This document shows, piece by piece, positions 6,248 to 34,715 of a stretch of DNA of 45,130 nt. The stretch lies in the NCBI GenBank assembly GCA_015064015.1, contig SVTB01000002.1, positions 1 to 45,130 on the forward strand. Reading direction: 5' to 3'. The position numbers were made by a program, and so were the translations under genes. Positions within the stretch are counted from its first letter, which is position 1, and each line of letters begins with the position of its first letter. The notes beneath the pieces are model-generated. The model did not search any database. It saw only the letters and a list, made by a program, of their open reading frames with translations, and was not told the DNA's origin. The DNA is from Oscillospiraceae bacterium (GTDB lineage: Bacteria; Bacillota; Clostridia; Oscillospirales; CAG-272).

Positions 6248-7576
6248 ATGACCTATACCCAAGCACTTGACTATATTCATTCGGTTTCCTGGAAGGGTAG
6301 CCGCCCGGGGCTCAGCCGCATTAAAGAGTTGTGTCAGCGGATCGGCAACCCCCAAAATGACTTGAAATTTATCCATGTTGCCGGAACCAATGGCAAAGGA
6401 TCTACCTCAGCCATGCTATCGAGCATCCTCATCCATGCCGGCTACCGTGTGGGGCTGTTTACATCTCCTTTCATTGTTCGATTTAATGAACGCATGAAGG
6501 TGAACGGATGCGACATTGAGGATGATACGTTGGCAGAAGTCACCGCCTTTGTCCGTCCTCACGCCGACGCTATGGCAGATGCCCCCACCGAGTTTGAACT
6601 CATCACGGCCATCGCCTTTGAGTTTTTTAAACGGGAGGGCTGCGACGTGGTGGTACTGGAGGTAGGCATGGGCGGCCGGTTGGATTCCACCAACATCATT
6701 CCCCCTTCCTCGGTTCTTTTGTCCATCATTACAGGCATCGCCATGGACCATACCGCTTTTTTGGGAGATACCCCTGAGGCGATCGCCAGAGAAAAGGCGG
6801 GGATCATCAAGGAAGATGTTCCTGTCTTGTTTGGAGGCGCGCACCCCGCCGTGGGATCAGATGCACGCACCGCCGTCAACCACGTATCGGTGGCGCAGGT
6901 AATTCAATCTGTAGCAGATGAAAAACGGGCACCCTGTACCATTACCGAACACGACCTCCTTTCGGAGGTCTCCTGTGATTTGACGGGCGCTGTCTTTTCT
7001 TTCGGCGCCTTCCAAAAAGTGCGCCTATCCCTTCCCGGAGTATATCAGCCCTATAACGCCGCCACGGTACTGACAGCTTGTAAAATTTTGGATCAGCAAG
7101 GATTGCTTCTGTCTGAAGACCATATCCGCAAAGGGCTGGAAAGCGTATCCTGGCCCGGCAGATTTGAGATCCTTTCTCAGAATCCTCTGGTCATTTCCGA
7201 TGGTGGACATAATCCCGAAGGGGTGGACGCAGCGGTGGCCGGGATCAAATGCCTTTTCCCCAATGGCAAGGTCTTTCTGCTGTCCGGAGTGATGGCTGAT
7301 AAGGATTTCCTTCCCATGGTTCGGCGGATGTGTGAAGTAGCCGAACAGGTATTTACTGTACGTCCCGACAATAGCCGCGCCATGAGTGCCGAAGCCTACG
7401 CAGAGGTGTTCCGCGCTCAAGGGCTCCCTGCCCAAGGCTACGACAGCATCGAGGCCGCTGTACACGCCGCCATGAAAGCCTGCCTCGCTCAACACAAACC
7501 CCTGCTAACCCTGGGATCCTTATATATGTACGGAGAAATCAGGGCAGCTGTGGTATCCTTTGCTGAAAGGAATTGA
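6248..7576 (+). CDS. folC: Folylpolyglutamate synthase / dihydrofolate synthase.
   Basis: HVAGTNGKGST P-loop and Mur-ligase-like layout. The MTYTQALDYIHS start at 6248 follows AAAGGAG. Confidence 0.9.
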   Translation: MTYTQALDYIHSVSWKGSRPGLSRIKELCQRIGNPQNDLKFIHVAGTNGKGSTSAMLSSILIHAGYRVGLFTSPFIVRFNERMKVNGCDIEDDTLAEVTAFVRPHADAMADAPTEFELITAIAFEFFKREGCDVVVLEVGMGGRLDSTNIIPPSSVLLSIITGIAMDHTAFLGDTPEAIAREKAGIIKEDVPVLFGGAHPAVGSDARTAVNHVSVAQVIQSVADEKRAPCTITEHDLLSEVSCDLTGAVFSFGAFQKVRLSLPGVYQPYNAATVLTACKILDQQGLLLSEDHIRKGLESVSWPGRFEILSQNPLVISDGGHNPEGVDAAVAGIKCLFPNGKVFLLSGVMADKDFLPMVRRMCEVAEQVFTVRPDNSRAMSAEAYAEVFRAQGLPAQGYDSIEAAVHAAMKACLAQHKPLLTLGSLYMYGEIRAAVVSFAERN

Positions 7577-8136
7577 TGATGAAACGTATATGCACCTGTT
7601 TACTCTGCCTTATTTTGGTACTCGCCGCAGTGACAAGTTTCTCCTCTTGTAGCATCTACGGACAGCGTCGTGTCGCTGACCCCTCCTATATGGCAGCCCG
7701 CCAAGACGTACTCACAGCCCCCCGTCCCACTGAAAGTAAGGACTTCTTTTTCTATACCGCCATTGTAGACATAGATGCCGGAGACCATGTCAGAACGCTG
7801 GTGTGTCATTTCGACGGCACCACCGAGCTTCATTTGTCCACGGGAGAGGTTTACGCGGGATTAGAGGTCTATGATCCGGCCATTGTCGGCATGACCCAAG
7901 ACTTTCTGAAAGGCTTGTCACAAAACACCGACTACATCTACTGGCAGGACAAAACTTCTCTTGCCCTTCCTCGCACAGGATGCCACAGTATTTATGCGGC
8001 AGGAACCCAAGGCATCTACCATCTGTCCCTCAATCCTCAAAAAATCCCCGCAACCCCCGTTTCGGAAATCTACGGGCTTTATATGCTCCTCTATGAAGCA
8101 GTAACCGCGTTGGTGGTAGAAAACACCTCTCCATAA
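7576..8136 (+). CDS. Hypothetical lipoprotein, about 186 aa.
   Basis: Signal peptide with lipobox FSSC. The start overlaps the folC stop (TGATG). ATG 7576 and ATG 7579 are equally possible. Confidence 0.7.
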   Translation: MMKRICTCLLCLILVLAAVTSFSSCSIYGQRRVADPSYMAARQDVLTAPRPTESKDFFFYTAIVDIDAGDHVRTLVCHFDGTTELHLSTGEVYAGLEVYDPAIVGMTQDFLKGLSQNTDYIYWQDKTSLALPRTGCHSIYAAGTQGIYHLSLNPQKIPATPVSEIYGLYMLLYEAVTALVVENTSP

Positions 8137-8140
8137 TTCC

Positions 8141-8170
8141 AAGCGCAGTCTTTTGAGACTGCGCTTTTCT
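8141..8170 (+). terminator. Intrinsic terminator of the folT-folC-lipoprotein operon.
   Basis: AAGCGCAGTC (8141..8150), loop TTTTGA, GACTGCGCTT (8157..8166), then TTCT. Confidence 0.8.
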
Positions 8171-8257
8171 ATCATCTGCCGAGGGGGAAATACCGCACAA
8201 AAATGATCCTCATAAATTGTACAAGCCTACAAAATTTCAAAGGTTTCTCAAAAGTGA

Positions 8258-8286
8258 TTGAAAAATAAAGCGCCATAAGGTAAAAT
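8258..8286 (+). promoter_or_regulatory. Sigma-A promoter (TTGAAA-17-TAAAAT).
   Basis: TTGAAA at 8258..8263 and TAAAAT at 8281..8286, upstream of the oxidoreductase gene. Confidence 0.55.
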
Positions 8287-8355
8287 ATGGGTAATCCCCT
8301 TTGGGGAAAAGCATTTGTGTTTATCATAAAAAATCAAAAATAAGGAGATATAATC

Positions 8356-9447
8356 ATGGCCAACACAAGAACAGTTCGTATCGGTATCATCGGTTGCGGC
8401 GGCATTGCCAACGGCAAGCATATGCCCTCCCTCAAGAAGCTTCCCAATGTCGAAATGGTCGCCTTCTGCGATATCATCGTAGAACGCGCCGAGGCCGCCA
8501 AGGCCAAATACGGCACCCCCGATGCCAAGATCTACAAAGACTACAAAGAGCTTCTCAAGGACGAGACCATCGAGGTGGTTCACGTCTGTACCCCCAACCG
8601 CTCCCACAGCTTCATCACCGTAGACGCTTTGGATGCAGGCAAGCACGTCATGTGCGAGAAGCCCATGGCTATCAACACAGCTGAGGCTCAAAAGATGCTG
8701 GACGCCCAAAAGCGTAGCGGCAAGAAGTTGACCATCGGTTACCAATCTCGTCAGGCCGCAGGTGCTCAGTACCTCAAAAAAGAGGCCGAGGACGGTACCT
8801 TTGGTGAGATCTACTACGCCAAGGCCACCGCACTTCGGCGCAGAGCTGTTCCCACCTGGGGTGTATTCCTCAATGAATATGAACAGGGCGGCGGTCCCCT
8901 CATCGACATCGGTACCCACTCCCTTGACCTGACCCTTTGGCTCATGGATAACTATAAGCCCAAGTACTGTGTGGGCACTTCCTACCACAAGCTGAACAAA
9001 GATACCAACCAAGGCAATGCCTGGGGCAACTGGGATCCCGACAAGTTCACAGTTGAAGACTCCGCCTTCGGCTTTATCGTCATGGAAAACGGCGCAACCA
9101 TCAATTTGGAAGCATCCTGGGCCATCAATATGCTGGATGTGCGCGAGGCAACCACCCTCATCTGCGGCACCAAGGCAGGCGCTGACCTCTATGACGGTGT
9201 GCGCATCAACGGCATCCGCAACAACAGCCAGTATGTGCTCCGTCCCTCTCTGAATCCTCAGGGTGCGGCCTTCTACGAGGGCGTCAACACCGGCGACCCC
9301 TCTGCCATGGAAGCAGCTCAATGGATCAACGCTGTGGTAACAGACACCGATCCTTGCGTACTGCCCGAGCAAGCCTTCACCATCACCCGCATTCTGGAGG
9401 GTATCTACGAGTCCGCCAAGACAGGCCAGCCCTACTATTTTGATTAA
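8356..9447 (+). CDS. Gfo/Idh/MocA-family NAD(P)-dependent oxidoreductase.
   Basis: RIGIIGCGGIANGKHMP Rossmann motif and the EKP motif (MCEKPMA) typical of the family. TAAGGAG RBS. Confidence 0.85.
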   Translation: MANTRTVRIGIIGCGGIANGKHMPSLKKLPNVEMVAFCDIIVERAEAAKAKYGTPDAKIYKDYKELLKDETIEVVHVCTPNRSHSFITVDALDAGKHVMCEKPMAINTAEAQKMLDAQKRSGKKLTIGYQSRQAAGAQYLKKEAEDGTFGEIYYAKATALRRRAVPTWGVFLNEYEQGGGPLIDIGTHSLDLTLWLMDNYKPKYCVGTSYHKLNKDTNQGNAWGNWDPDKFTVEDSAFGFIVMENGATINLEASWAINMLDVREATTLICGTKAGADLYDGVRINGIRNNSQYVLRPSLNPQGAAFYEGVNTGDPSAMEAAQWINAVVTDTDPCVLPEQAFTITRILEGIYESAKTGQPYYFD

Positions 9448-9480
9448 GTCATCATCAGTCGAGCACGGGAGGACACGCCT

Positions 9481-11013
9481 ATGAAAATCACCAAGCTTTT
9501 CTCCCTCGGTCTGTGTATGATCCTTTTGTGTACGGGGCTTGGCGGTTGTGTCAGCCCTCAAACACCTTCGGGAAATACGGATCTGCCGGAAAATTCCGAG
9601 CCTTCCACAATTCCCGTTACCGAGCTTCCCCAAGAAACGGCTCCCCCCACGATTGAAGAAACCCTTCCCATGACCGCAGCTCCCACCGAAGAAGCCACCC
9701 AAAGTCCTGAGGAAGCGGAGGCACAGAAGCAGGCAATGATGAAAGAAATTTATGATGCAACCGAAGGTATTCAGCTTCCTATCGGCGGCTGGTCTACCCC
9801 TGCCTCCGCCCTGCGAGACGGATATACAGGAGTGACAGGCAGTTACGACAAAGTGTTCGAGGTCATTGCCGCTTCGGGCATCAACTACATGATCACCTTA
9901 GAGGAATGGAGCTCGGGCTCTTGGCCGCTGGAATCGCTGTCCTCTGCCAAAAAGGCGGGCCTTCGACTTTGGTATAACTGCGTGGGTCAATCCGCCGACT
10001 ACTCGCTGGAAAAGATCAATGCTCTCCTGTCTTCAGAATACGCCGATGCGCTGTCAGGCATTTACGTTAAGGACGAGCCCACGCTGGGTGATATCCCGGA
10101 CTTAGCCGAGCTAACTTCCGCCATCCGTACGGGATTGGGAGAAGATTTTGACCGTCCCGTTTTCTCCAATCTTTTGCCCACTTATGCCACCTCGGGCATG
10201 ATCGGTAATGATTACAGAGCCTATGTTCGCTCCTATTTGGATGCCGTCAAGCCTGACCGCCTCATGTTTGATTATTATCCTTATCAAATAGGCAACGGCG
10301 ACTCTCTCCCCTCCATGATGGCCAATATCGCCATAGCACGCGAGGAAGCTGAAAAGAATGGTATTGAGCTGTACACCTACATTCAATCCTCCGGAAATCC
10401 CTCCACCCGCGAGCCGGACTTGGAAGAGCTCACCCTTAATGCCCATCTGAATTTGGCTATGGGGGTCAAGGGTATCGCCTACTTCCTTGTCTGCGAGCAC
10501 TACGACGGTTGGGATTATACCAACATGATCGACTATGAGGGGAACCCCACCCCCATGTACGATAAGATCAAGGCCGTCAACGATGGGCTTAATGCCATGA
10601 AAGGCGTGTATTTAGCCTACGACTTTGACGGCATGATCTTATGCAATTATCAAAAAGGCTCCCAAGCCTTGAAAAGAGCAGACTGTCAAACCGAAATCAC
10701 CACCCATGAAAGCGGCCCGCTACTTTCGGCTTTGCATCTCAACAAACGATCTCAAATTGCCGTGGGATGCTTTACAAATCCTGCAAAAGAAAATGATTGG
10801 GGCTACTATTTGGTCAATTTGAATTACCAATTCCAAAGTAAGGTCACCCTGACCTTCTCGGAAGCTGTCAGCTATCAGCTTTGGGGAAGCGATGGTTTGG
10901 AGGATATGGGTACCGCCACCTTAAACGCCGACGGTAGCTATACCCTTGACCTTACCCTGAAAAACGGGGAGGGCGCATTTTTGAAAGTCTCTCTCGCCAC
11001 AGAAAACCAATGA
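9481..11013 (+). CDS. Secreted lipoprotein, 510 aa, with a Pro/Glu/Thr-rich linker and a possible clan-A (TIM-barrel) glycoside-hydrolase-like domain.
   Basis: Lipobox LGGC. The motifs YVKDEP and FDYYPY, plus the alternating strand/helix pattern, are reminiscent of GH5/GH42-like folds. No family recognised with certainty. Confidence 0.6.
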   Translation: MKITKLFSLGLCMILLCTGLGGCVSPQTPSGNTDLPENSEPSTIPVTELPQETAPPTIEETLPMTAAPTEEATQSPEEAEAQKQAMMKEIYDATEGIQLPIGGWSTPASALRDGYTGVTGSYDKVFEVIAASGINYMITLEEWSSGSWPLESLSSAKKAGLRLWYNCVGQSADYSLEKINALLSSEYADALSGIYVKDEPTLGDIPDLAELTSAIRTGLGEDFDRPVFSNLLPTYATSGMIGNDYRAYVRSYLDAVKPDRLMFDYYPYQIGNGDSLPSMMANIAIAREEAEKNGIELYTYIQSSGNPSTREPDLEELTLNAHLNLAMGVKGIAYFLVCEHYDGWDYTNMIDYEGNPTPMYDKIKAVNDGLNAMKGVYLAYDFDGMILCNYQKGSQALKRADCQTEITTHESGPLLSALHLNKRSQIAVGCFTNPAKENDWGYYLVNLNYQFQSKVTLTFSEAVSYQLWGSDGLEDMGTATLNADGSYTLDLTLKNGEGAFLKVSLATENQ

Positions 11014-12062: not shown

Positions 12063-13670
12063 TCAAAAAGGTTCATCAGTAAACACCTCCCCACCTGGAA
12101 ACAAGGGGAACAGCGTATATCCGTTCGCCAAATAACTTTGGAAAGTTCCGACACCCAAGGCATCGTACATTGCCATAAAGTCGTCATAGCTGATCTCGTG
12201 TCTCTCTTCGTTGGCCACCATATAATAAGCAACCGGGTCACTGTCGTCGGTGAGATCCTTATCAAACGTTCCAAATTCATGCACCGTCACAAGCTGACCT
12301 GAGACCAGTTTCTGAACACGGATATAGAGATGGTCGTCTTTTCCGCCATAGGTATGGCAAACAGCCCCATATGCCGGCAGATAGCCGAAATATGTCTCGT
12401 CTTTGGCTTCGTATCCCGTATCTATAGGGATACCATACGCCATGCTAAACAGCGCAAATACGCGGGTATTGGAAGACAGTAGCAACAGCTCGTCTTCTCC
12501 GTCCAGATTCACGTCCGCGATGATATAGTTCACGTCTTTTCCCCGATAGGTGTCGGCGTGAGCTTTCAGGGCACGGTAAATGGCATCATCGTTTTCATTC
12601 GTTACCTGGATCTTTTCATTTTCGGGAGCATCGGCGGGTTCCTCACTCATCAGATGGCGGAACACACGGATGATATCCTCATGGGTAAAAAACAGACGTT
12701 CCATGGGCCAAATGGGAGCGTAGTAGGATCGTAATGATTGATTGAATGTATTTTGACCAAAAGTGGCGAAGGGAATACCGTTCAGTCGCAAATCGTATAC
12801 TTCCTCGGAAATATAGTACGCCTCGTCTGCTGTCCTGTAATAATACAGAACATTTCCCTCCGTATTCTGACCGACGATGGCAAGAGATTCTTCAAAAACA
12901 AGCTGTCTTGTAGCGGCATCCATCCGGTATATACTCCGCTCGCCGCGAGGAGGATCGCTGTAACTATCGACGACCATTAGTTGACCGTTGTCATTGACAA
13001 ATCCTGTATGTTTGTTCCCAAAGGTTTCCAACAATACAGGTCGATCGTCAGCACGCAGGGTAAATATAGCCACGATGGTCATGTCCTTTGTGAGCAGGAA
13101 CAATTCATCAACGCCGTCACGGTTGATGTCCTTGATCGCATAGCCGAAATGAAGGTGTCCCGCGGGATCACATTCCAGCATATCATTTTGGGGATAAAAT
13201 GCCGCAATAGATATGCTCATCGCCATATACCAATGCCTTGCGATGCTGTCCGGAAATGCAAATTGGGCATCAACTTTCGCCTGTTCATCATCCTTCATCC
13301 ATTCGGGGCTAAGCTCTACCATTTTTCGATACATCATCAGAATGGACTCATAGCTATCAAAATCCGCAGAAATCTGTTCGGGGTAAGTATCCTCTTGGGT
13401 TTCGCTTTCTGCGGGGATGCTTTCGCTGACAGGAGGTCTCGTATACTCCCCTCGGTTCAGCAAAATCACAGCCACGATACCGATGGATATAAAGGTACAA
13501 AGAGCAGCCACCATTGCGGGATGATTAACAAAGGCTAAAAAACGACCTCGCCGTTGGGGCTTAACAGATCGGAACGCACCGCCACGGATATCACTTTCAG
13601 TGATCAGGTCCTCGCTCATGTGGCTCATCAGCGCGGCAACGGATAAAACTCGATCATTGGCGTACATCAT
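12063..13670 (-). CDS. Putative anti-sigma factor: cytoplasmic N-terminus, one TM helix, large extracytoplasmic domain with FG-GAP/VCBS-like Asp-rich loops.
   Basis: The start overlaps the sigma-factor stop (ATGA at 13667..13670). The TM helix is AALCTFISIGIVAVILL. DINRDGVDELFLL and DVNLDGEDELLLL are repeated. Confidence 0.6.
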   Translation of the reverse strand: MMYANDRVLSVAALMSHMSEDLITESDIRGGAFRSVKPQRRGRFLAFVNHPAMVAALCTFISIGIVAVILLNRGEYTRPPVSESIPAESETQEDTYPEQISADFDSYESILMMYRKMVELSPEWMKDDEQAKVDAQFAFPDSIARHWYMAMSISIAAFYPQNDMLECDPAGHLHFGYAIKDINRDGVDELFLLTKDMTIVAIFTLRADDRPVLLETFGNKHTGFVNDNGQLMVVDSYSDPPRGERSIYRMDAATRQLVFEESLAIVGQNTEGNVLYYYRTADEAYYISEEVYDLRLNGIPFATFGQNTFNQSLRSYYAPIWPMERLFFTHEDIIRVFRHLMSEEPADAPENEKIQVTNENDDAIYRALKAHADTYRGKDVNYIIADVNLDGEDELLLLSSNTRVFALFSMAYGIPIDTGYEAKDETYFGYLPAYGAVCHTYGGKDDHLYIRVQKLVSGQLVTVHEFGTFDKDLTDDSDPVAYYMVANEERHEISYDDFMAMYDALGVGTFQSYLANGYTLFPLFPGGEVFTDEPF

Positions 13671-14218
13671 ATGGTGTGCCCCCTTTCCGTGAGATAAATA
13701 CGCAATTTTTCCCGTGTACGGGTCAGGCGTTTGGTGACGGCATTGGGTGTCAGCCCATAATGCTTAGCCAACGCTTTAACGCTGCAAGCGTGCCAATAAC
13801 GCCCCATGAACAGCTTGCGACTCATGGCGTCCTCCCCTCGCAAAAAAGCCTCCATCAGGGAAATAATCTCGCCCTCCGTTTCGGCTGGGGCAGGCAGACA
13901 TTCGGCAAGCTCGGCCAACGTGATTTCAAAATTCATATGTTTTTTGACCGTACGGTTTTGACGGTAGCGGTCAATTGAAAGACGGCGAATGATCACTGCC
14001 AGATAGTTTTTAAGAGATGGGGGGCGTTTAGGCGGTATAGTGTCCCATGCCCTCAGGTAGGTATCGTTGAGGCATTCCTCGGCATCGGCGCGGTTACCCA
14101 GAATACCCTGGGAAAGGCTCAAACAAAATTTTCCGTAGACACGATCTGTTTCAATGATAGCGCGCTCGTCTCTTGCTAAATACAGCGCCAAAATCTGTTG
14201 GGTAATTTGAGGATTCAT
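13667..14218 (-). CDS. ECF-type sigma-70 family RNA polymerase sigma factor.
   Basis: Region 2 (DAEECLNDTYLRAWD, RRLSIDRYRQ) and a region 4 HTH (VKALAKHYGLTPNAVTKRLTRTREKL). The MNPQ start at 14218 follows AAGGAGG. Confidence 0.85.
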   Translation of the reverse strand: MNPQITQQILALYLARDERAIIETDRVYGKFCLSLSQGILGNRADAEECLNDTYLRAWDTIPPKRPPSLKNYLAVIIRRLSIDRYRQNRTVKKHMNFEITLAELAECLPAPAETEGEIISLMEAFLRGEDAMSRKLFMGRYWHACSVKALAKHYGLTPNAVTKRLTRTREKLRIYLTERGHTI

Positions 14219-14439
14219 ATATCCACCTCCTTGGAAGGTCTTCATCTATTATAACGGATGTGAACATAAAAATCTGCCTCTTAAAATGAATTTTTCTTGC
14301 TTTTTTGTGTTTTTATTTTAAATACCCCAAAGCTATGACACGGTGCTTTTTCTCCCTTGTTTTGCAAAAATTGGTGACATTGAACAAAAACACCTTGCCA
14401 ATTTCTACATTCCATCATACAAAAGATCAAAAACACATC

Positions 14440-25415: not shown

Positions 25416-25446
25416 GCAAAAAAGGGGCGAACACAGTTCGCCCCTT
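25416..25446 (-). terminator. Strong intrinsic terminator closing the membrane-protein cluster.
   Basis: On the minus strand: AGGGGCGAAC-TGT-GTTCGCCCCT followed by TTTTTTG. Confidence 0.8.
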
Positions 25447-25458
25447 TGGTCATCAATT

Positions 25459-25980
25459 TTAATCTTCTCCTGCAAAAGGTCTGTGAGCTTCCACGAAATC
25501 GTTGAGCCCGGCGCGGCGAAGCATCTGCTTTTCGTCGGGATGAATCGCGACAACAATACAATTTTTACCGCTTCTCTCCCCTGCCTTAGCGGAGAAATAG
25601 AGGTAATATTGCTCTTTGTGGTGGTATCTCGGGCGCATCAATACCGAGGTGATCCCCCAACTTTTGACGTATTTCCAAGGCATTTCCCGTTTGCAACGAC
25701 CAAAGCGGTACAGACGCACGCCATTGTTATCCACAACAACACGCTGACCCAAGGAAACGCAGAAAAAATAGCCCCCAATACCCCCAAGTCCTACAGAGCA
25801 GACAATCGCGAGCCAAAGCTCGCCTGTTTCATCGGGCATGCCGCTGATGGCAAACGCCACCCACGGCAGAGCCGCAACAGAGAGCATCAAAAGAAAAAGG
25901 AGTGACATCATCCCTTGAAAAAATTTGCTATGGTACAGGACGTAGCCTGTGTCGGTCTTTTCAATTTTGATATGCTTCAT
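25459..25980 (-). CDS. Uncharacterised 2-TM protein, paralog 1 of 4 (173 aa).
   Basis: The MKHIKIEKTDTGYVL start at 25980 follows AAGAAAGGAA. Two hydrophobic helices. C-terminal motifs GVRLY and WKYVKSWG are shared with 25994.., 26592.. and 29288... Confidence 0.75.
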   Translation of the reverse strand: MKHIKIEKTDTGYVLYHSKFFQGMMSLLFLLMLSVAALPWVAFAISGMPDETGELWLAIVCSVGLGGIGGYFFCVSLGQRVVVDNNGVRLYRFGRCKREMPWKYVKSWGITSVLMRPRYHHKEQYYLYFSAKAGERSGKNCIVVAIHPDEKQMLRRAGLNDFVEAHRPFAGED

Positions 25981-25993
25981 CGTCGTTCCTTTC

Positions 25994-26578
25994 TTATTCA
26001 TCAGTCTTTCGATTGACAAGCTCACGGCCGCCAATGCTTGTGCCGACCCGTTTGGCTTTATGGGGGATTCGGTCTACGCAGAAGTCCATTAGCTCGCTTT
26101 GAAGGATGCTCACAGATTCACGGGGCGACAGTTCTATGCTGATGCGTTTTCCGTCAGCGGCGTTTTTTCTGTCCGAGGACACAAAAAACTCATATCTCTC
26201 CTCGGCGCGCCGATAGTGGTACGAAACCGTAGACACATCCATCACGCCCCACGACTTGATCTCCCGCCACGTCAAAGCAGAAACGCGACAGAACAAGCGA
26301 TAAAAGCGCACGCCCTTTTGGTCGAACACCAGTTTTGCTCCGACGGTCAGCCAAAAGGCATACCCCCCAAGCGCCATACCCCCAAGACCGACCACGCACC
26401 AGAAGATACCGGGAAGCTTAAACGCAAGTTGTCCGTCCTTAACCCACCATGGCATAGAAAAGGTAAAAATGCTCAACCCGAGAATCATCGCGGCGCTTAT
26501 CCCTTTTAGCAGCGTATGTCCGATGCTTTGGCGCAGCACGTAGCCCTCGGCGGTCTTGACAATTTTGACTTTTTTCAT
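25994..26578 (-). CDS. Uncharacterised 2-TM protein, paralog 2 of 4 (194 aa).
   Basis: Starts MKKVKIVKTAEGYVL. Motifs GVRFY and WREIKSWG. TAAGGAG RBS. 13-nt spacer to the next gene. Confidence 0.75.
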   Translation of the reverse strand: MKKVKIVKTAEGYVLRQSIGHTLLKGISAAMILGLSIFTFSMPWWVKDGQLAFKLPGIFWCVVGLGGMALGGYAFWLTVGAKLVFDQKGVRFYRLFCRVSALTWREIKSWGVMDVSTVSYHYRRAEERYEFFVSSDRKNAADGKRISIELSPRESVSILQSELMDFCVDRIPHKAKRVGTSIGGRELVNRKTDE

Positions 26579-26591
26579 TGCGGTTCACTCC

Positions 26592-27218
26592 TTATCTGTC
26601 AATCGCCCCGTATCTGTCAAGCTCCCCGTACAGGGGATAGTCCGACCTGAACATAGGCACGTAGGCTTCATCGTCGCCGTCCAAGTGCGCGCGGCAGTAA
26701 GGGATCAGTCCCGAATTTCGGAGTGCCTCGGTATCCTCAAGGTAGACTGCAATGGCCACCCCTCGGAATTTACGGGGGAACTTCTTGGTTTTGCTATTTC
26801 GCATTTGCATAACCTCCGGAGAAAAATAGAAACGGTATGCCGTGCCGTGGTATTTCACATAACCCCAATAAGAAAATCCCCAATCCTTGATCTCCGACCA
26901 ACGTATGATCACGGGCTTTTGGCGACGGTAACAGACGGTGATGCCATCCTCGTCCAGCCGCCACGGCGTTGTGGCGAAATCCTCCGCGACCAAGGAGAAG
27001 ACAATCCCCGCACCGCAAAAGCAAGCCATCACGATGAAAAGAATCATGCCCGGAAGCTCCTTCACCACGAAGGAAAAGACGATCGCACCGCTTGCACAAA
27101 ACAAAAAATAAACCGAAGACATACAGAGCAAAAAGATTCGGCTGAAATTCGCGCCTCGCGCGCGGAGATGGTAGCCTCCCTCGGGGAGCTTGGTAATGTC
27201 AAGACGGAATTTTTTCAT
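26592..27218 (-). CDS. Uncharacterised 2-TM protein, paralog 3 of 4 (208 aa).
   Basis: N-terminus MKKFRLDITKLPEGGYHL. Motifs GITVCY, WSEIKDWG and YCRAH. AAAGGAG RBS. Confidence 0.75.
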   Translation of the reverse strand: MKKFRLDITKLPEGGYHLRARGANFSRIFLLCMSSVYFLFCASGAIVFSFVVKELPGMILFIVMACFCGAGIVFSLVAEDFATTPWRLDEDGITVCYRRQKPVIIRWSEIKDWGFSYWGYVKYHGTAYRFYFSPEVMQMRNSKTKKFPRKFRGVAIAVYLEDTEALRNSGLIPYCRAHLDGDDEAYVPMFRSDYPLYGELDRYGAIDR

Positions 27219-27258
27219 AGGAGGCTCCTTTCAGAAAATGTATAGCGGTTCAATGCTT

Positions 27259-28263
27259 TCACACAGCCACCGCCACCGCGACGATCACCGACAAAAAGGC
27301 AATAATGAACGACCCCCATCCGATCATATACCAATGATCAAAGACGGTCCGCTCCTCCTCGGGGATGGAAAGACGGTCTGACATATTTGCAAAAATAACG
27401 TTGACCACGATAAAATGGAGTGCCAGCGGTATGATCCCGATGCAAAGAATGCCCCCAAACCAAAGACCGAAGACCACGTTCAAAGCGGCATAGACCAGAT
27501 GGACGGCAGCATTGACACGGCAATAGGCGGTCATCACCCTCGCCTTTCGGTTGGTGAAAAGCGTTTTGATACGGACTTTGGTCGGAGCTTCGGCGGTTTG
27601 CTGCTCCACAACCTTTTTGTACGCCTTGCGTTGTTCAAGAAACAAGAGAATACCAACACCCGCAAACCCGCCAAAGCCCACCATCCAGCACAGACCGAAG
27701 TTAAAGATCCAATGCCACCAAGGGCGGGACACGATGGTCGTAAGATTCCCATCGGCATCGGCACGATAGACCTGATAGGTACTGAAATAGATCTCTCCCG
27801 CTTGAAATTCCCCCGTGGATTCGTTTTCCCAATCATAGGAAAGATCGAGGGAATTACTGGGGATTTTTCGGATAAATGCACCGCTTTGGGCATTGTAAAT
27901 ATAGGCATTGTCGTTGCCGTAGATCACCAATTCCTCGGGGTGGATCTCAAAATAGGCGTTTCTCAAATAGGGCGTGGAGACCGCCCAGAGAAACTCACCG
28001 TTTTCGGTGTATGCGTTGACGTAGGAAGCGTCGTTATAGCACACGTAGATCATACCGAGGGGCTCGTGATGCAAAACCGTCTTTATCTCGTCGGGGGCGG
28101 TCAGCTCGGGCTGGAGGTTTTCATAGTCTTGGGTGTCCACCATGCAAAGGCTTCGACCGATCACCCCCATAACCCCTGAGGCAAAGATCATGAAAATGAA
28201 AAGATAGACAAGGGGGATCTTGAAGAGGTCTTTGCATTTGAATCTGATCTTATTGTTTTCCAT
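27259..28263 (-). CDS. Uncharacterised polytopic membrane protein, 334 aa: N-terminal TM helix, beta-rich extracytoplasmic domain of about 170 aa, then 3-4 C-terminal TM helices.
   Basis: Hydrophobic segments IPLVYLFIFMIFASGVMGVIG, WWHWIFNFGLCWMVGFGGFAGVGILLFL, VVFGLWFGGILCIGIIPLALHFIVV and IGWGSFIIAFLSVIVAVAVAV. AAAGGGAAG RBS. Confidence 0.7.
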   Translation of the reverse strand: MENNKIRFKCKDLFKIPLVYLFIFMIFASGVMGVIGRSLCMVDTQDYENLQPELTAPDEIKTVLHHEPLGMIYVCYNDASYVNAYTENGEFLWAVSTPYLRNAYFEIHPEELVIYGNDNAYIYNAQSGAFIRKIPSNSLDLSYDWENESTGEFQAGEIYFSTYQVYRADADGNLTTIVSRPWWHWIFNFGLCWMVGFGGFAGVGILLFLEQRKAYKKVVEQQTAEAPTKVRIKTLFTNRKARVMTAYCRVNAAVHLVYAALNVVFGLWFGGILCIGIIPLALHFIVVNVIFANMSDRLSIPEEERTVFDHWYMIGWGSFIIAFLSVIVAVAVAV

Positions 28264-28282
28264 GGACTTCCCTTTCGCGGCT

Positions 28283-29131
28283 TTAAATCAACCGCAGCTT
28301 CTCCGCCACCCGCTTGCCGTCAAAGATGATATAGCTGTGGCTGTCGTCGTCATATCCCACGTGGATCTCGTGGCCGTCCACCGTGGCACAAAGATCGTGT
28401 TCAAACTCAATCACAGACTTCATCTCGTCGTAGACCACGCCGTTCACGATCAGCTCGTTGGTACTACCCACGCGGCGATAGCAGATGCGGTAGTACCCAA
28501 CCGTCTTTTCCAGCAGGATCTTGCATTTGATCCCCATGTTGGCGCGGCGCAGACCCGTATCGTCCACGCCGTGGGTTCGTCTTTTGTCACGCTTTTTCAA
28601 GCGGTCGGCTTCTTTGCGTTTATGGGTCGATTGGATGACGGCGTAGACAATGAAGAACACACCGCAAAAGATCACGAAAACACCGATGAAAATATAGCCG
28701 TTGTCGAAGGCATCCAGCTCCTCTTGGGAGGTCTCGAAATTCATCAGTTCTTGGGTGTCGGTTTTGATCTCCACCACGTAGCCGTTGTTGGGATTGACCA
28801 TCAAGTAAAGCCGCGTGCCTTTCTCCAGGGAATTCATGGCCTTGCGGAGATCCGAGCTTTCGGTGTGGGGGTAGATCTCGTACGTTGATCCATCCGTGAA
28901 GTGGATGGTACAGTCATTCCGCGCGGTCGTGTATTTTTCGAACTTTCCCTCATAAGCGACGGCCTCTTCACGGGGGATGGGCTTGTTATCCTGTTGCGGA
29001 ATGATAAAGAAAACGCCCATGAGAAAGCACAAAAGCGCAACGATCAGGGTGGCGGGCAGAGAATTCAAGATAGTATCTGCCATGGCGCTCTTAGAGTTTC
29101 TGTACTCGCTGTTTTTCTTGTTCTTTTTCAT
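28283..29131 (-). CDS. Uncharacterised bitopic/2-TM protein, 282 aa, with a basic juxtamembrane stretch and a C-terminal beta-rich domain.
   Basis: TM helices LPATLIVALLCFLMGVFFII and YIFIGVFVIFCGVFFIVYAVI. Basic stretch HKRKEADRLKKRDKRR. C-terminal motifs ELIVNGVVYDE and YIIFDGKRV. AAAGGAG RBS. Confidence 0.7.
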   Translation of the reverse strand: MKKNKKNSEYRNSKSAMADTILNSLPATLIVALLCFLMGVFFIIPQQDNKPIPREEAVAYEGKFEKYTTARNDCTIHFTDGSTYEIYPHTESSDLRKAMNSLEKGTRLYLMVNPNNGYVVEIKTDTQELMNFETSQEELDAFDNGYIFIGVFVIFCGVFFIVYAVIQSTHKRKEADRLKKRDKRRTHGVDDTGLRRANMGIKCKILLEKTVGYYRICYRRVGSTNELIVNGVVYDEMKSVIEFEHDLCATVDGHEIHVGYDDDSHSYIIFDGKRVAEKLRLI

Positions 29132-29287
29132 GAAGGCTCCTTTCGAGAGGGTTTCACTTATATATAAACGCTAAAGAATTGAAAATCTTACAAATTCACA
29201 ATCACTTCTTCGGGATCCACCACCTCACAGCCAATGGCAAAGAGGGCTACCTCCCAAGGGGCTTTTTCTGCCCTTACCAACCCTTGA

Positions 29288-29845
29288 TTACCCCTGCTTC
29301 GCCGTCAGCCATCGGTCCCGCTCTGCGGGGGCACTGTCCCCTTGGGAGGCGGCGATATGAGTGCGGCAGTAGGAAAGAAAGCCGGATTCCTCCAGTACTT
29401 CACGGTCGAACTTGACCAGCTCAATGATGTGGGAGCAGGTGGAGGCATCCTCGGCAGTGACGCGGGGGACGTTTGAGAAGAACAGGAGCGTGCGGGGGTG
29501 GTATAGACTGTAGCGTCCCTTATGGAGGACGACGACGGTGCCCCAATCCTTCACTTCAGCCCAGCGGAGCAACTCGTCCTCACGGGCACGCTTGTTGTGG
29601 ACGCGAATGCCCTCACTTGTGACGGTGAGACGGCACCGCCGCTCGCGGATGATGGCCTTAAGGCCTGCCGCGTAGAGGAGGGCACAGCCCGCCAACATGA
29701 GGAGAGTCTCGGGAAAGTAGCGAGAGAGGTCGGAGAGGGTCAGGATCAATCCCAGGGTGGCGGCGGCCAAAATAACGGAGGAGATCACGGTCTCGGAGGG
29801 GGCGTGGCGAAGAATATAGCCGTTGGGTGCCTGATCAATTTTCAT
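29288..29845 (-). CDS. Uncharacterised 2-TM protein, paralog 4 of 4 (185 aa); first gene after flotillin.
   Basis: Starts MKIDQAPNGYIL. Motifs GIRVH, WAEVKDWG and YCRTH. GAAAGGAG RBS. Confidence 0.75.
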   Translation of the reverse strand: MKIDQAPNGYILRHAPSETVISSVILAAATLGLILTLSDLSRYFPETLLMLAGCALLYAAGLKAIIRERRCRLTVTSEGIRVHNKRAREDELLRWAEVKDWGTVVVLHKGRYSLYHPRTLLFFSNVPRVTAEDASTCSHIIELVKFDREVLEESGFLSYCRTHIAASQGDSAPAERDRWLTAKQG

Positions 29846-29873: not shown

Positions 29874-29953
29874 GATACAGAGATACGACATACCAGATAC
29901 CACGCAAGGCGGGTCACGGCCCACCCGTATCTTATATCTCGTATCCTTGTATC
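29874..29953. promoter_or_regulatory. Mirror-symmetric pentamer array: GATAC-3-GATAC-2-CATAC-2-GATAC, a 26-nt GC-rich centre, then GTATC-2-ATATC-2-GTATC-3-GTATC.
   Basis: Pentamers start at 29874, 29882, 29889 and 29896, and at 29927, 29934, 29941 and 29949. The 27-nt arms are complementary at 22 of 27 positions. The centre holds a CGGGT-CACGGCC-ACCCG hairpin. The array lies between the flotillin terminator and the RBS of 29288..29845. Confidence 0.6.
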
Positions 29954-29954
29954 T

Positions 29955-29990
29955 AAAAAATTGCCCCCTCCCCCATTACGGGAGAGGGGG
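29955..29990 (-). terminator. Intrinsic terminator of the flotillin gene.
   Basis: On the minus strand: CCCCCTCTCCC-GTAATG-GGGGAGGGGG followed by CAATTTTTT. Confidence 0.8.
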
Positions 29991-30034: not shown

Positions 30035-31525
30035 TTACTTCTTTTCTTCGGTTGCGGCTGCGGCCTTACCGCCCACGAAACCGGAGATCATGCTCTTGAC
30101 GTCCAGGCCGGTGGCTTCCTCCAGGCCTTCCATGATCTGGTTGGAGGAGTTCATGACGTCACGCAGCAGCTTGGTGGAATTGCCGTCGCCGTACATAACG
30201 ATCTTGTCGGTCTGTGCCAGGGGTGCGGCGGCGTTCTTGACCACCTCGGGGAGTGCCTGCAGGTACATTTCCAAGACGGAGGCTTCGCCCATCTTCTTCT
30301 GAGCTTCTGCCTTCTTCTCGATGGCCTCTGCCTCGGCAAGACCCACGGCGCGGATACCTTCCGCTTCCTTCATCTTGGCGTAAGCCTCAGCCTCTGCGAT
30401 GGCGCGCTTGGCCTCAGCCTGACGCTCCTGCTCGTACTTCTCGGCTTCCGCAGCCTTCATACGAGCCATAGCGGCCTGCTCTTCCTCGTAACGCTTTGCC
30501 TCGGATTCCTTCTGACGGCGGATGAGATCTGCTTCGGCTCTCTTCTCGGCCTCGTACTTGAGTGCGTCGGCCTTCTTTTTGATCTCTGCGTCCAGCTTCT
30601 TTTCCTGGAGAGCGATCTCTTTTTCGAACAGCTCGGCTTCCTTTTCACGGCGAGCGATATCAGCATTGGCGGAGGTGACTTCGATGGTCTTTCTCTGCTC
30701 CTGCTTCTGGATATCGTAAGCGGCGTCGGCTTCTGCCTTCTTGATGTCGGCGTCTTTCTTCAGCTCTGCCTCACGGATGGCCAGGGTGGTGTTCTGCTCG
30801 GCGATGCGCTGGTTGGCCTCCACGGCCACTTTGTTGGCAGACTCGCGGGCGTTGGCCTCGGCGATGGCGATGTCACGGGCGGCCTCAGCCTTGGCAATTT
30901 GGGCAGCCTTGCGGATCTGCTCCACGTTATCAATACCCATGTTCTCGATGGTGCCTGCGCCGTCCTTGAAGTTCTGAATATTGAAGTTGACGATCTCAAT
31001 ACCCAGCTTCATCATATCAGGGATGGCATTTTCCTTGATCTTTTCAGCGACGATCTGACGCTCCTGAACCATTTCCTTCAGGCCCACGGAGCCTACGATC
31101 TCACGCATATTACCTTCCAGCACCTGGGTGACCAGGAAGATGAGCTGACGCTGATCCATGCCAAGGAGAGCCTCAGCGGCCTTCTCCAAAAGCTCGGGGT
31201 TAGAGGAAATCTTGATGTTGGCGACACCGTCTACGGTGACGTTGATGAACTCGTTGGTGGGGATGGCTTCACTGGTCTTGATGTCCACCTGCATGACGTC
31301 CAGAGACAGTTTATCCAGACGCTCGATGAGGGGGATGCGGATGCCGGCTTTACCAATCAGGATCTTCTTCTTTTTGCGAACACCGGAGATGATGTACGCA
31401 CGGTTCGGGGGGGCCTTGACGTAGCCTGCGATAAAGAACAGCAGGATGAAGGCGGCAACGCCGATGATGATCCCTATGACATAGTTGGGCAGAGCCAATG
31501 CCATGAGACTGATGTGGTTGAACAT
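30035..31525 (-). CDS. floT: Flotillin-family SPFH (band 7) protein, 496 aa.
   Basis: N-terminal hydrophobic hairpin. The SPFH domain includes YVKAPPNRAYIISG and VDGVANIKI. A long Ala/Glu/Lys-rich flotillin-repeat coiled coil follows. AAAGGAGG RBS. Confidence 0.85.
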   Translation of the reverse strand: MFNHISLMALALPNYVIGIIIGVAAFILLFFIAGYVKAPPNRAYIISGVRKKKKILIGKAGIRIPLIERLDKLSLDVMQVDIKTSEAIPTNEFINVTVDGVANIKISSNPELLEKAAEALLGMDQRQLIFLVTQVLEGNMREIVGSVGLKEMVQERQIVAEKIKENAIPDMMKLGIEIVNFNIQNFKDGAGTIENMGIDNVEQIRKAAQIAKAEAARDIAIAEANARESANKVAVEANQRIAEQNTTLAIREAELKKDADIKKAEADAAYDIQKQEQRKTIEVTSANADIARREKEAELFEKEIALQEKKLDAEIKKKADALKYEAEKRAEADLIRRQKESEAKRYEEEQAAMARMKAAEAEKYEQERQAEAKRAIAEAEAYAKMKEAEGIRAVGLAEAEAIEKKAEAQKKMGEASVLEMYLQALPEVVKNAAAPLAQTDKIVMYGDGNSTKLLRDVMNSSNQIMEGLEEATGLDVKSMISGFVGGKAAAATEEKK

Positions 31526-31679: not shown

Positions 31680-31708
31680 ATTATATCACACGGTCACGCG
31701 ATTGTCAA
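31680..31708 (-). promoter_or_regulatory. Consensus sigma-A promoter for floT.
   Basis: On the minus strand: TTGACA (31708..31703), 17 nt, TATAAT (31685..31680). Confidence 0.7.
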
Positions 31709-33111: not shown

Positions 33112-33140
33112 TTGCATTTTTTCAAACCTTATGTTATACT
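33112..33140 (+). promoter_or_regulatory. Sigma-A promoter (TTGCAT-17-TATACT) for the DUF1846 gene.
   Basis: TTGCAT at 33112..33117 and TATACT at 33135..33140. Confidence 0.5.
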
Positions 33141-33204
33141 AAATATGTATTTTTTATTTATCGGGGAAGGATGGTGCTCGTCTTCGGCGGGCGGGAATGA
33201 CATT

Positions 33205-34715
33205 ATGGCACAAGTAGACATAACCCGTGAGCAACGCAAGCAGGAGGGCTTCAGCAACGAGACCTACATCAAGCTGCAGTCTCAAAAAATCCGAGACAGA
33301 ATTGACACTTTCGGTGGCAAATTGTACATGGAATTTGGCGGCAAACTCTTTGACGATTATCACGCCGCCCGTGTTCTTCCCGGCTTCGCACCGGACGCGA
33401 AGCTCTGTATGCTGCAGGCCTTGGCCGACGAAGCCGAAATCGTCATCGCCATCAACGCCGCAGACATCGAAAACAACAAATATCGCGGTGATCTGGGGAT
33501 TACATATGACCGTGAGGTCATGCGCCTGATTGATTGCTTCCGCCGCGTCGGCCTATACGTCGGCAGTGTTGTCTTGACGCGTTACACGGGTCAGCACGCC
33601 GCTGATTCTTTCAAAAAGACCATGGAAAATCTGGGCGTTAAGGTGTACCGTCACTATCAAATCAACAATTATCCTTCCGATGTGGCCCACATCGTCAGCG
33701 AAGAGGGATTTGGCCGCAACGACTATATCGAAACCTCCCGTTCCTTAGTCGTGGTCACGGCTCCCCGGGTAGCGGCAAAATGGCCACCTGTCTCTCCCAA
33801 CTTTACCACGAGCACAAGCGAGGCGTGGCTGCGGGATACGCCAAATTCGAAACCTTCCCCGTATGGAACCTTTCCTTGAAGCATCCTGTTAATTTGGCTT
33901 ATGAGGCCGCGACGGCTGATTTGGCTGATGTCAATATGATCGACCCCTATCACTTGGAAGCATACGGGCAAATATCGGTCAATTACAACCGCGACATTGA
34001 GATTTTTCGCGTGCTGGAATCCATGATGACCCGTATTTTCGGCAAGTGTCCCTACAAGAGCCCTACGGATATGGGTGTCAACATGGCGGGATACGCCATT
34101 TATGACGATCAAGCTGTCAGCGAGGCTTCCAAACAGGAAATCATCCGCCGCTATTTCAAAACCGCCTGTTCCCGTTGCAAAGGACAAGCCGACCCCGAAG
34201 AAATTCGCAAAATCGAACTTCTCATGGATGAGGCAGGTATTACCCCCGAATGCCGCCCCACCGTTCCGGCCGCCAGACAAGTGGTTCAACGCACCGGCCG
34301 CCCTGCTGTGGCCATCCAGCTTCCCGACGGACACATGGTCACAGGCAAGACCACCGATCTTTTAGGCGCGTCCTCAGCCGCAATTCTCAACGCGCTGAAA
34401 TATCTGGCACAAATTCCCGATGAGATCAAGCTCATTTCTCCTGAGGTCATCGAGCCTATCATGCATCTCAAAACCCATTTGGGAAGCCGCAACCCCCGTA
34501 TGCACACCGATGAGCTGCTCATCGCGCTCTCCATCTGTGCCGTGACCGATGAATACGCCGCCCGCGCCATGGAGGAGCTGGACAAAATACGCGGCAGCGA
34601 AATTCACTCCACCGTCATCCTCGCACACGCCGATGAAAAACTGTTCGGCAAGCTGGGTGCTCGCGTCACCAGCGACCCAGTATTTGAGGAAAAACGCCTG
34701 TACCACGGTGTTTGA
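33205..34715 (+). pseudogene. DUF1846 / UPF0371-family gene interrupted by a frameshift in a C4G3 homopolymer run (33763..33769).
   Basis: ORFs 33112..33879 and 33780..34715 are the N- and C-terminal halves of one protein. Frame 1 reads ..SLVVVTAP, then frame 2 reads GSGKMATCLSQLYHEHKRG... Two nucleotides (C33766, G33767) are left over between the frames. Confidence 0.75.

Follow-up and report, generated by a model that had tools for sequence, protein, structure and literature searches.

We have analysed a 45,130-nucleotide (nt) stretch of DNA of an Oscillospiraceae bacterium (GenBank assembly GCA_015064015.1, contig SVTB01000002.1, positions 1 to 45,130; referred to below as the window), focusing on six genes, P1 to P6, situated directly downstream of a floT-like flotillin gene. 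The genes form a lineage-specific array that is rapidly reshuffled and encodes small proteins of the cytoplasmic membrane. Four of the genes (P1, P2, P3 and P6) encode paralogs, designated family A, which we assign with good confidence to the PH-domain membrane proteins of bacteria, as a divergent branch that lacks a database model and has bPH_6 as its nearest Pfam family. P5 represents a second family (family B), and families A and B together form the recurrent core of the array. As to function, we consider it possible (with a probability of about 0.4) that the array encodes an unfused multi-module complex, analogous to the YdbS/YdbT proteins, which would act in an envelope-stress neighbourhood and shield the cell from membrane-active peptides.

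The original prediction, made from the sequence without database searches, had described the four family A proteins as alignable paralogs, and this was borne out. They share 21-33% identity over their whole length, and pairwise BLASTP comparisons gave E values from 1e-20 (P1 vs P2) to 1e-4, the sole weak pair being P2/P3 (E 0.01). Residues M1, K2, I6, G12, Y13, L15, G87, W102, K106, W108 and G109 are invariant in all four. Three of the motifs noticed originally (G-[VI]-[RT]-x, W-x-[EY]-[IV]-K-[SD]-W-G and [FY]-[CV]-x-x-[HR]) are present as described, whereas the fourth, a strand of the type Y-x-x-[FY]-[FV]-S, is imperfect in P6. Despite their deep divergence, the paralogs retain intact reading frames and the conserved motifs. 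The family hidden Markov model (HMM) match of P1 has an E value of 3e-72. Orthologs of individual paralogs were recognised in related loci (designated L001 to L005 and L019; see below): those of P1 are 61-65% identical in L001 and L005, and those of P3 are 84% identical in L001, 67% in L005 and 49% in L004.

A transmembrane (TM) hairpin followed by a small beta domain had been proposed for these proteins, and the same architecture is predicted by hydropathy, with two TM segments each for P1, P3 and P6 and a single clear peak for P2, and by an AlphaFold2 model of P2 (built from 31 sequences; pLDDT 79.4, pTM 0.69). In the model, an N-terminal beta-hairpin (strands 4-8 and 13-17) is followed by two membrane helices (19-41 and 55-78), which directly precede a PH-like domain with six strands across residues 81-150 and then C-terminal helices. 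When the model was compared with the PDB using Foldseek, nearly all top matches were PH-superfold domains (probability up to 0.99), i.e. the PTB domains of ICAP1, Numb and SNT, the F3 lobes of FERM domains, and the PH domains of TFIIH p62 and GRP1. The predicted architecture of a family A module is that of YdbS. The charge distribution, together with the model, suggests that the PH-like domain faces the cytoplasm; the N-terminal hairpin may, as a prediction only, complete the PH sandwich.

Profile scans (Pfam, NCBIfam, PADLOC and PHROG) revealed no family above threshold for any of the six proteins. Below threshold, P3 gave hints of bPH_6 (E 0.17; 12.3 bits vs a gathering score of 22) and of STM3941_fam (E 0.01). 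Weak matches to bPH_6 (best E 0.0032) were obtained for 14 of 31 family A relatives, which makes it the sole Pfam family matched repeatedly; the 25 most frequent family matches of these 31 relatives (E<=10) do not include bPH_2. A word-indexed search of 5.8 billion proteins returned only 30 relatives, none of them annotated, and an exhaustive profile search of 1.84 billion representatives yielded 350 family A proteins at E<=1e-3. The 350 include four proteins of 423-499 amino acids (aa), P0390, P0395, P0410 and P0416 (E 1e-6 to 5e-6), which score 30-36 bits on bPH_6, above the cut-off of 22, and the homology of family A can in this way be followed through intermediate sequences to bona fide members of bPH_6. 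These observations, together with the Foldseek matches, uphold the suggested resemblance to PH proteins of the YdbS/YdbT type. Three of the four (P0390, P0395 and P0416) match the family A profile in three separate stretches and are YdbT-like in size and layout, and two further relatives (P0306 and P0313) are fusions of two modules. Such fused two- and three-module proteins are confined to remote relatives; in the window all modules are encoded by separate genes. Close members of the family appear to be rare, since scans of genomes and metagenomes with sub-family alignments found only two species-representative genomes and three short metagenome contigs. Comparison of the sequence profiles of three families with PDB chains gave nothing significant, and hhalign detected no domain shared between families A and B.

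The AlphaFold2 model of P5 (pLDDT 90.8) consists of a membrane helix, a barrel (residues 58-130) with the element order strand-strand-strand-helix-strand-strand, a long helix containing a second membrane segment, and a conserved C-terminal domain (residues 204-279) whose eight strands are arranged as four hairpins; hydropathy also gives two TM segments. Domain-level Foldseek searches found OB folds (such as IF1, TiaS and OBody; probability 0.97-1.0, E about 0.01-0.1), which, judging from the strand order, would belong to the 58-130 domain. The charge distribution would place this barrel on the extracellular side and the C-terminal domain in the cytoplasm. More than 160 homologs of P5, about 50% identical to it, were found. 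The layout helix-barrel-helix of its N-terminal half is also that of DUF3592-type proteins; weak DUF3592 matches (best E 0.015) were found in 11 of 41 P5 relatives, none of the 41 scored above threshold, and P5 itself gave no match. Compared with DUF3592-type proteins, P5 has an additional part, the eight-strand C-terminal domain, which has no detectable relative (its best PDB profile match, to a PRC-barrel, has a non-significant E of 0.066). A Foldseek comparison of the P5 model with viral structures gave only uncharacterised or OB-type matches.

The remaining gene, P4, encodes a protein with about five TM segments according to hydropathy: one at the N-terminus, then a conserved, beta-rich domain of about 150 aa, which is predicted to be outside the cell, and then four more. 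Its 127 homologs contain no Pfam domain. In their alignment, C75, W93, P98 and Y99 of the soluble domain are invariant, and P279 and H283 (P-x-x-x-H) of a TM helix nearly so. A solitary P4 homolog was noticed in locus L014, among small DUF1963, DMP19 and DUF4304 genes (L014 2079-9953). DUF1963, DMP19 and DUF4304 are immunity-type families of polymorphic toxin systems; if this assignment is right, the observation hints that P4-type proteins occur in immunity-like islands.

Seven loci (the window, L001, L002, L003, L004, L005 and L019) were long enough for their organization to be judged. In all seven, three to four family A genes and one to two genes with the P5 C-terminal domain, preceded by a membrane helix, are tightly packed on one strand. 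Around this core, the order of genes is shuffled and the composition is different in every locus: P4 belongs to the array in just two loci, the window and L001, a family of 125-aa proteins occurs in the arrays of L002-L004, a Bax1-I gene directly follows floT in L001 (2342-3010) and L019 (386-1054), and the P5 homolog of four loci is devoid of the OB-like domain, some members of family B being 190 aa long. Between loci, the array proteins are 21-90% identical and FloT is 90-95.5% identical, which, with the shuffled order and a gene relic in the window (see below), shows that the array turns over rapidly. In other Clostridia, homologs of P4 and of full-length P5 are mostly solitary genes in unrelated neighbourhoods. 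The variable composition and order, considered together with these solitary homologs, indicate that the cluster of six genes, as it had been presented originally, is not a conserved unit; P4, like the OB-like outer domain of P5, is an accessory module that exists on its own in many other Clostridia. The neighbourhood comparison showed family A together with family B in all seven loci and next to floT in six of them, whereas P4 accompanies them in two only.

Turnover can also be seen within the window. The 156-nt spacer between P6 and P5 has the length reported originally, but it is not empty: a tblastn search revealed within it a relic of 28 codons that matches, at 79% identity (E 1.6e-10), the C-terminal end of a 170-aa 2TM protein whose gene is intact in L001 (3032-3544). 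The spacer is thus a decayed gene, which provides direct evidence of gene turnover in the array. P6 has a GC content of about 0.60 (window region 29200-29800), compared with 0.50-0.52 in P1-P5, and its orthologs (76-77% identity) are placed at the far end of the array in L002 and L003, not beside floT, which suggests that P6 arrived at its present site by recombination. Apart from P6, which alone is richer in GC, base composition revealed no clear foreign island. An origin of the array from a mobile element was considered and rejected, as tblastn searches with P5 and P2 against plasmids and with P5 against phages gave no match. In L005, the 620 nt upstream of the array (7322-7943) are packed with long GC-rich palindromes; these resemble repetitive extragenic elements, which fits a recombination-prone junction.

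In L001, the array is directly followed by a gene for an extracytoplasmic function (ECF) sigma factor and a gene for a 689-aa protein, which together occupy 7833-10441. A homolog of the L001 ECF sigma gene (49% identity) was also noted in the window, at 13667-14245 (region 12063-14245, minus strand), 11 kb away.

The coordinates of the array, its signals and its flotillin neighbour are collected in Table 1.

Table 1. Genes and sequence signals of the P1-P6 array and of the adjoining flotillin gene
Feature	Position in the window	Strand	Description
P1	25459-25980	minus	173 aa, ATG start; family A paralog
P2	25994-26578	minus	194 aa, ATG start; family A paralog; protein used for the AlphaFold2 model
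P3	26592-27218	minus	208 aa, ATG start; family A paralog
P4	27259-28263	minus	334 aa, ATG start; polytopic membrane protein
P5	28283-29131	minus	282 aa, ATG start; TM1, OB-like barrel, TM2 helix, C-terminal domain (family B)
P6	29288-29845	minus	185 aa, ATG start; family A paralog, GC-richer
floT-like flotillin gene	30035-31525	minus	496 aa; neighbour, outside the array
Relic of a decayed gene	29191-29274	minus	found by tblastn, inside the P6-P5 spacer
Array-closing intrinsic terminator, downstream of P1	~25418-25447	minus	read directly from the sequence
Intrinsic terminator of floT	29964-29990	minus	stem and T-run
Long, imperfect GATAC-repeat palindrome	29874-29953		adjoins the floT terminator on the P6 side
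Consensus sigma-70 promoter upstream of floT	31680-31708	minus	TTGACA-17-TATAAT

The six minus-strand open reading frames (ORFs) and their intergenic spacers (13, 13, 40, 19 and 156 nt, in order from P1 to P6) were found exactly as had been described. Each gene is preceded by a Shine-Dalgarno sequence of the GAAAGGAG type, that of P1 and that of P4 being weaker. Terminators flank the array on both sides, again in agreement with the first description. The one downstream of P1 has the form GGGGCGAAC-TGT-GTTCGCCCC followed by TTTTTT; the stem of the floT terminator has 12 pairs, nine of which are G-C, and precedes a T-run. The short spacers (13-40 nt), the shared strand and the lack of any terminator before the end point to joint transcription of the genes from P5 through P1. 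The 189-nt spacer between floT and P6 (29846-30034), comprising the floT terminator and the GATAC palindrome, folds with a z-score of -5.4 relative to shuffled sequences. The palindrome motif occurs once in the window, is kept in L001, L003 and L019 and is absent from L002, L004 and L005; an Rfam scan of the region, the palindrome included, recognised no family. It could be an operator for a promoter of the array, or an RNA hairpin or leader. The intergenic regions are generally rich in hairpins; when they were searched for a small precursor ORF, none was plausible, and only the gene relic and hairpins were found.

The flotillin itself scores above the Pfam cut-offs for Band_7 (73 bits) and Flot (38 bits), and 257 bits on the NCBIfam FloT model, below the equivalog cut-off of 700. 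The promoter upstream of its gene has an extended TG and matches the sigma-70 consensus at 12 of 12 positions. Such a perfect consensus suggests strong housekeeping-type transcription, unlike the ECF-type control known from Bacillus subtilis. Besides floT, the neighbours in the window include genes for a LexA-like repressor, a predicted HD-domain phosphohydrolase (dGTPase-like), SpoIIP and a germination protease, as well as dnaG and sigA. A DUF1846 gene on the plus strand (33112-34715) is broken up into two ORFs that overlap (33112-33879 and 33780-34715), the first covering the N-terminal and the second the C-terminal half of the family model; a frameshift, a pseudogene or a sequencing error may account for this.

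The original prediction had also drawn attention to the position of the array behind floT. This linkage was recovered in six of the seven loci, in which floT lies directly upstream of the array while the outer flanks differ. The six loci, however, represent one narrow clade (FloT 90-95.5% identical), and in every one of them the stem of the floT terminator is kept between floT and the array. The array of L005, a sister species, occupies the same dGTPase-dnaG-sigA position as that of the window, but metG is found upstream of it and floT is absent; moreover, one remote family A relative ends a corrinoid methyltransferase operon and is not linked to floT. The link with floT is real but shallow. 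An obligate complex explains it less well than would inheritance within the clade or a common stress neighbourhood. As stated in the original prediction, no NfeD gene flanks floT in the window, and none was found among the called neighbours of the related loci.

What might such an array do? Published work on 2TM-PH proteins offers a possible answer. Export of the leaderless bacteriocin EntDD14 depends on two of them, DdE and DdF, neither of which is dispensable, and homologs are encoded in the gene clusters for aureocin A53 and lacticin Q (PMC8657885). In B. subtilis, protection from amylocyclicin is conferred by YdbST and protection from sublancin by the floA operon (PMC8144471), and the sigma-W regulon of this bacterium includes both ydbST and yuaF-floT-yuaI (PMC3498285). 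By analogy with these roles, the original suggestion of an immunity or protection module is plausible (PMC8657885, PMC8144471). YdbS has one module and YdbT three, so that YdbS plus YdbT, like DdE plus DdF, total four, and four single-module genes are present in the window. This correspondence, the existence of fused relatives and the published roles lead us to favour an unfused multi-module complex, and the ECF sigma gene behind the L001 array speaks for the same reading. In the proposed mechanism, the single-module paralogs would assemble through their conserved, putatively cytoplasmic PH-like domains into a hetero-oligomeric membrane complex, as an unfused counterpart of YdbS (one module) and YdbT (three), or of DdE and DdF, with the poorly conserved TM hairpins supplying specificity. 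The complex would protect the cell from membrane-active peptides or expel them, as may be supposed by analogy with YdbST, DdE/DdF, LnqC/D and Orf7/8. The adjacency of floT would then reflect a shared envelope-stress neighbourhood, and a physical complex with flotillin would not be required.

A number of observations weigh against this proposal. At the level of the family assignment, the Foldseek matches of P2 have E values of at least 0.012, which are not significant, and target-normalised TM-scores of at most 0.48; family A does not reach the gathering score of bPH_6 (PF10756), for which P1, P2 and P6 gave no match, and bPH_2 was not matched by any protein of the window in searches extended to E<=1. 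As regards function, hetero-oligomerisation is proposed only by analogy with the fused relatives and YdbS/YdbT, and the parallel with peptide protection draws on distant homology. Furthermore, no promoter for the array was identified in the sequence, no bacteriocin, ABC transporter or toxin gene was found in or beside it, and the corrinoid methyltransferase context of the remote relative has no obvious connection with envelope stress.

One may also ask whether the genes have any joint function. The locus could be a permissive chromosomal spot in which unrelated, dispensable membrane genes accumulate, duplicate and decay, their common orientation and the proximity of floT being accidental. Much of the turnover described above fits this explanation well: composition and order differ in every locus (with P4 in two only), homologs of P4 and P5 are solitary in unrelated contexts elsewhere, the P6-P5 spacer holds a relic, P6 differs from its orthologs in GC content and position, and the intergenic regions are hairpin-rich. 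We nevertheless regard it as somewhat unlikely. Families A and B co-occur in all seven loci, including that of the more distant L005 species, the stretch from P5 through P1 has spacers of 13-40 nt, one orientation and a terminator only at its end, and the paralogs have kept their frames and motifs through a deep divergence.

Another explanation, which we consider rather unlikely, takes the array for flotillin partners replacing NfeD, with family A and/or family B docking onto the FloT scaffold in order to recruit or regulate clients. The usual operon partner of an SPFH2 flotillin is a small protein composed of a TM part and a beta domain (PMC2636767). NfeD and YuaF are such small membrane-anchored proteins with an all-beta soluble domain, encoded beside a flotillin gene (PMC2636767), and family A resembles them in these respects. 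The absence of NfeD from the surroundings of floT and the presence of floT immediately upstream in six of the seven loci in spite of differing flanks would agree with a replacement, as would the OB-like barrel of P5, since OB is the fold type of NfeD. The Bax1-I gene, which takes the same slot in L001 and L019, is also in line with it: Bax1-I is the family of Escherichia coli YccA, which interacts with HflKC and FtsH. Against this stand the strong terminator conserved in six loci and the gene order, as nfeD usually lies upstream of the flotillin gene in the same operon, whereas the array is downstream of floT, behind the terminator. All the floT-linked loci are of one narrow clade, so the adjacency may be simply inherited, and both the L005 array, with metG in the place of floT, and the remote relative are unlinked. 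The proteins themselves do not conform either: none of the six matches the NfeD profile (E<=1), P5 relatives do not have NfeD among their most frequent family matches (E<=10), and the family A domain is predicted to be of the PH type and not of the OB type. In P5, the OB-like barrel sits between two TM helices, whereas the OB-fold of NfeD is C-terminal, after N-terminal TM helices; the P5 barrel is, moreover, predicted to be outside the cell, and is missing from the 190-aa members of family B. A more specific version, in which a diversifying set of 2TM-PH proteins act as adaptors and, together with family B, replace NfeD by docking onto FloT via their conserved cytoplasmic domains while the variable TM hairpins pick different client proteins or lipids, seems to us very unlikely; if true, a bacterial flotillin would be served by a modular “cargo-adaptor” system that is genetically defined.

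The array might also be imagined as the export and self-immunity machinery of a leaderless bacteriocin producer (of the EntDD14, lacticin Q or aureocin A53 type), in which 2TM-PH proteins are a hallmark of the gene clusters (PMC8657885). Neither a small cationic peptide ORF in or beside the array nor an adjacent ABC transporter gene was found, and the plasmid and phage searches gave no match, which renders this extremely unlikely. The same can be said of a membrane module for phage defence or abortive infection. Defence islands do contain variable arrays of small membrane proteins, and P5 gave a very weak PADLOC hint of a “2TM effector” (E 0.027), but no PADLOC or PHROG family was significant for the six proteins, no sensor, nuclease or NTPase gene lies nearby, and the neighbours are housekeeping and sporulation genes.

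To conclude, a divergent family of bacterial PH-domain membrane proteins forming a diversifying array beside flotillin is a modest find and not a new kind of system; it will not surprise a specialist, but it should be useful for annotation and as a handle on complexes of the YdbS/YdbT type. The organisms carrying the array are uncultured gut Clostridia, mainly known from metagenome-assembled genomes. Family A, with about 350 representative clusters (E<=1e-3), has no database model, and the P4 and P5 families have more than 100 members each. Profile models of their own for family A, P4 and P5 would clear a block of “hypothetical proteins” in genomes of gut Clostridia. To our knowledge, the mechanism by which YdbS/YdbT-type complexes act in bacteriocin export and resistance is still unknown. 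If the multi-module interpretation is true, the locus would represent an unfused complex of this type, which could be dissected more easily than a fused three-module protein. The adjacency of floT provides, in addition, candidate partners for a bacterial flotillin without NfeD, although a functional link of this kind is weakly supported.

Among known systems, the array is closest to YdbS/YdbT of B. subtilis and to DdE/DdF, LnqC/D and Orf7/8 of leaderless-bacteriocin clusters (bPH_2, COG3402/COG3428), with which it shares a module composed of a 2TM hairpin and a small domain, predicted to be PH-like in family A; as with the YdbS and YdbT genes, the family A genes are placed side by side on one strand. 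The differences from the YdbS/YdbT-type clusters concern both context and sequence. The array of the window stands beside flotillin, with no bacteriocin gene or ABC transporter; its modules are all unfused and have no bPH_2 match, the nearest Pfam family being bPH_6 (PF10756). The window proteins stay far below its gathering score, and family A would need its own model. Finally, family A adds to the common module an N-terminal beta-hairpin, K-I-x-K-x-x-x-G-Y-x-L, before the membrane hairpin, and carries the signature W-x-E-[IV]-K-[DS]-W-G, two features that set this branch apart from the other PH-domain membrane proteins of bacteria.

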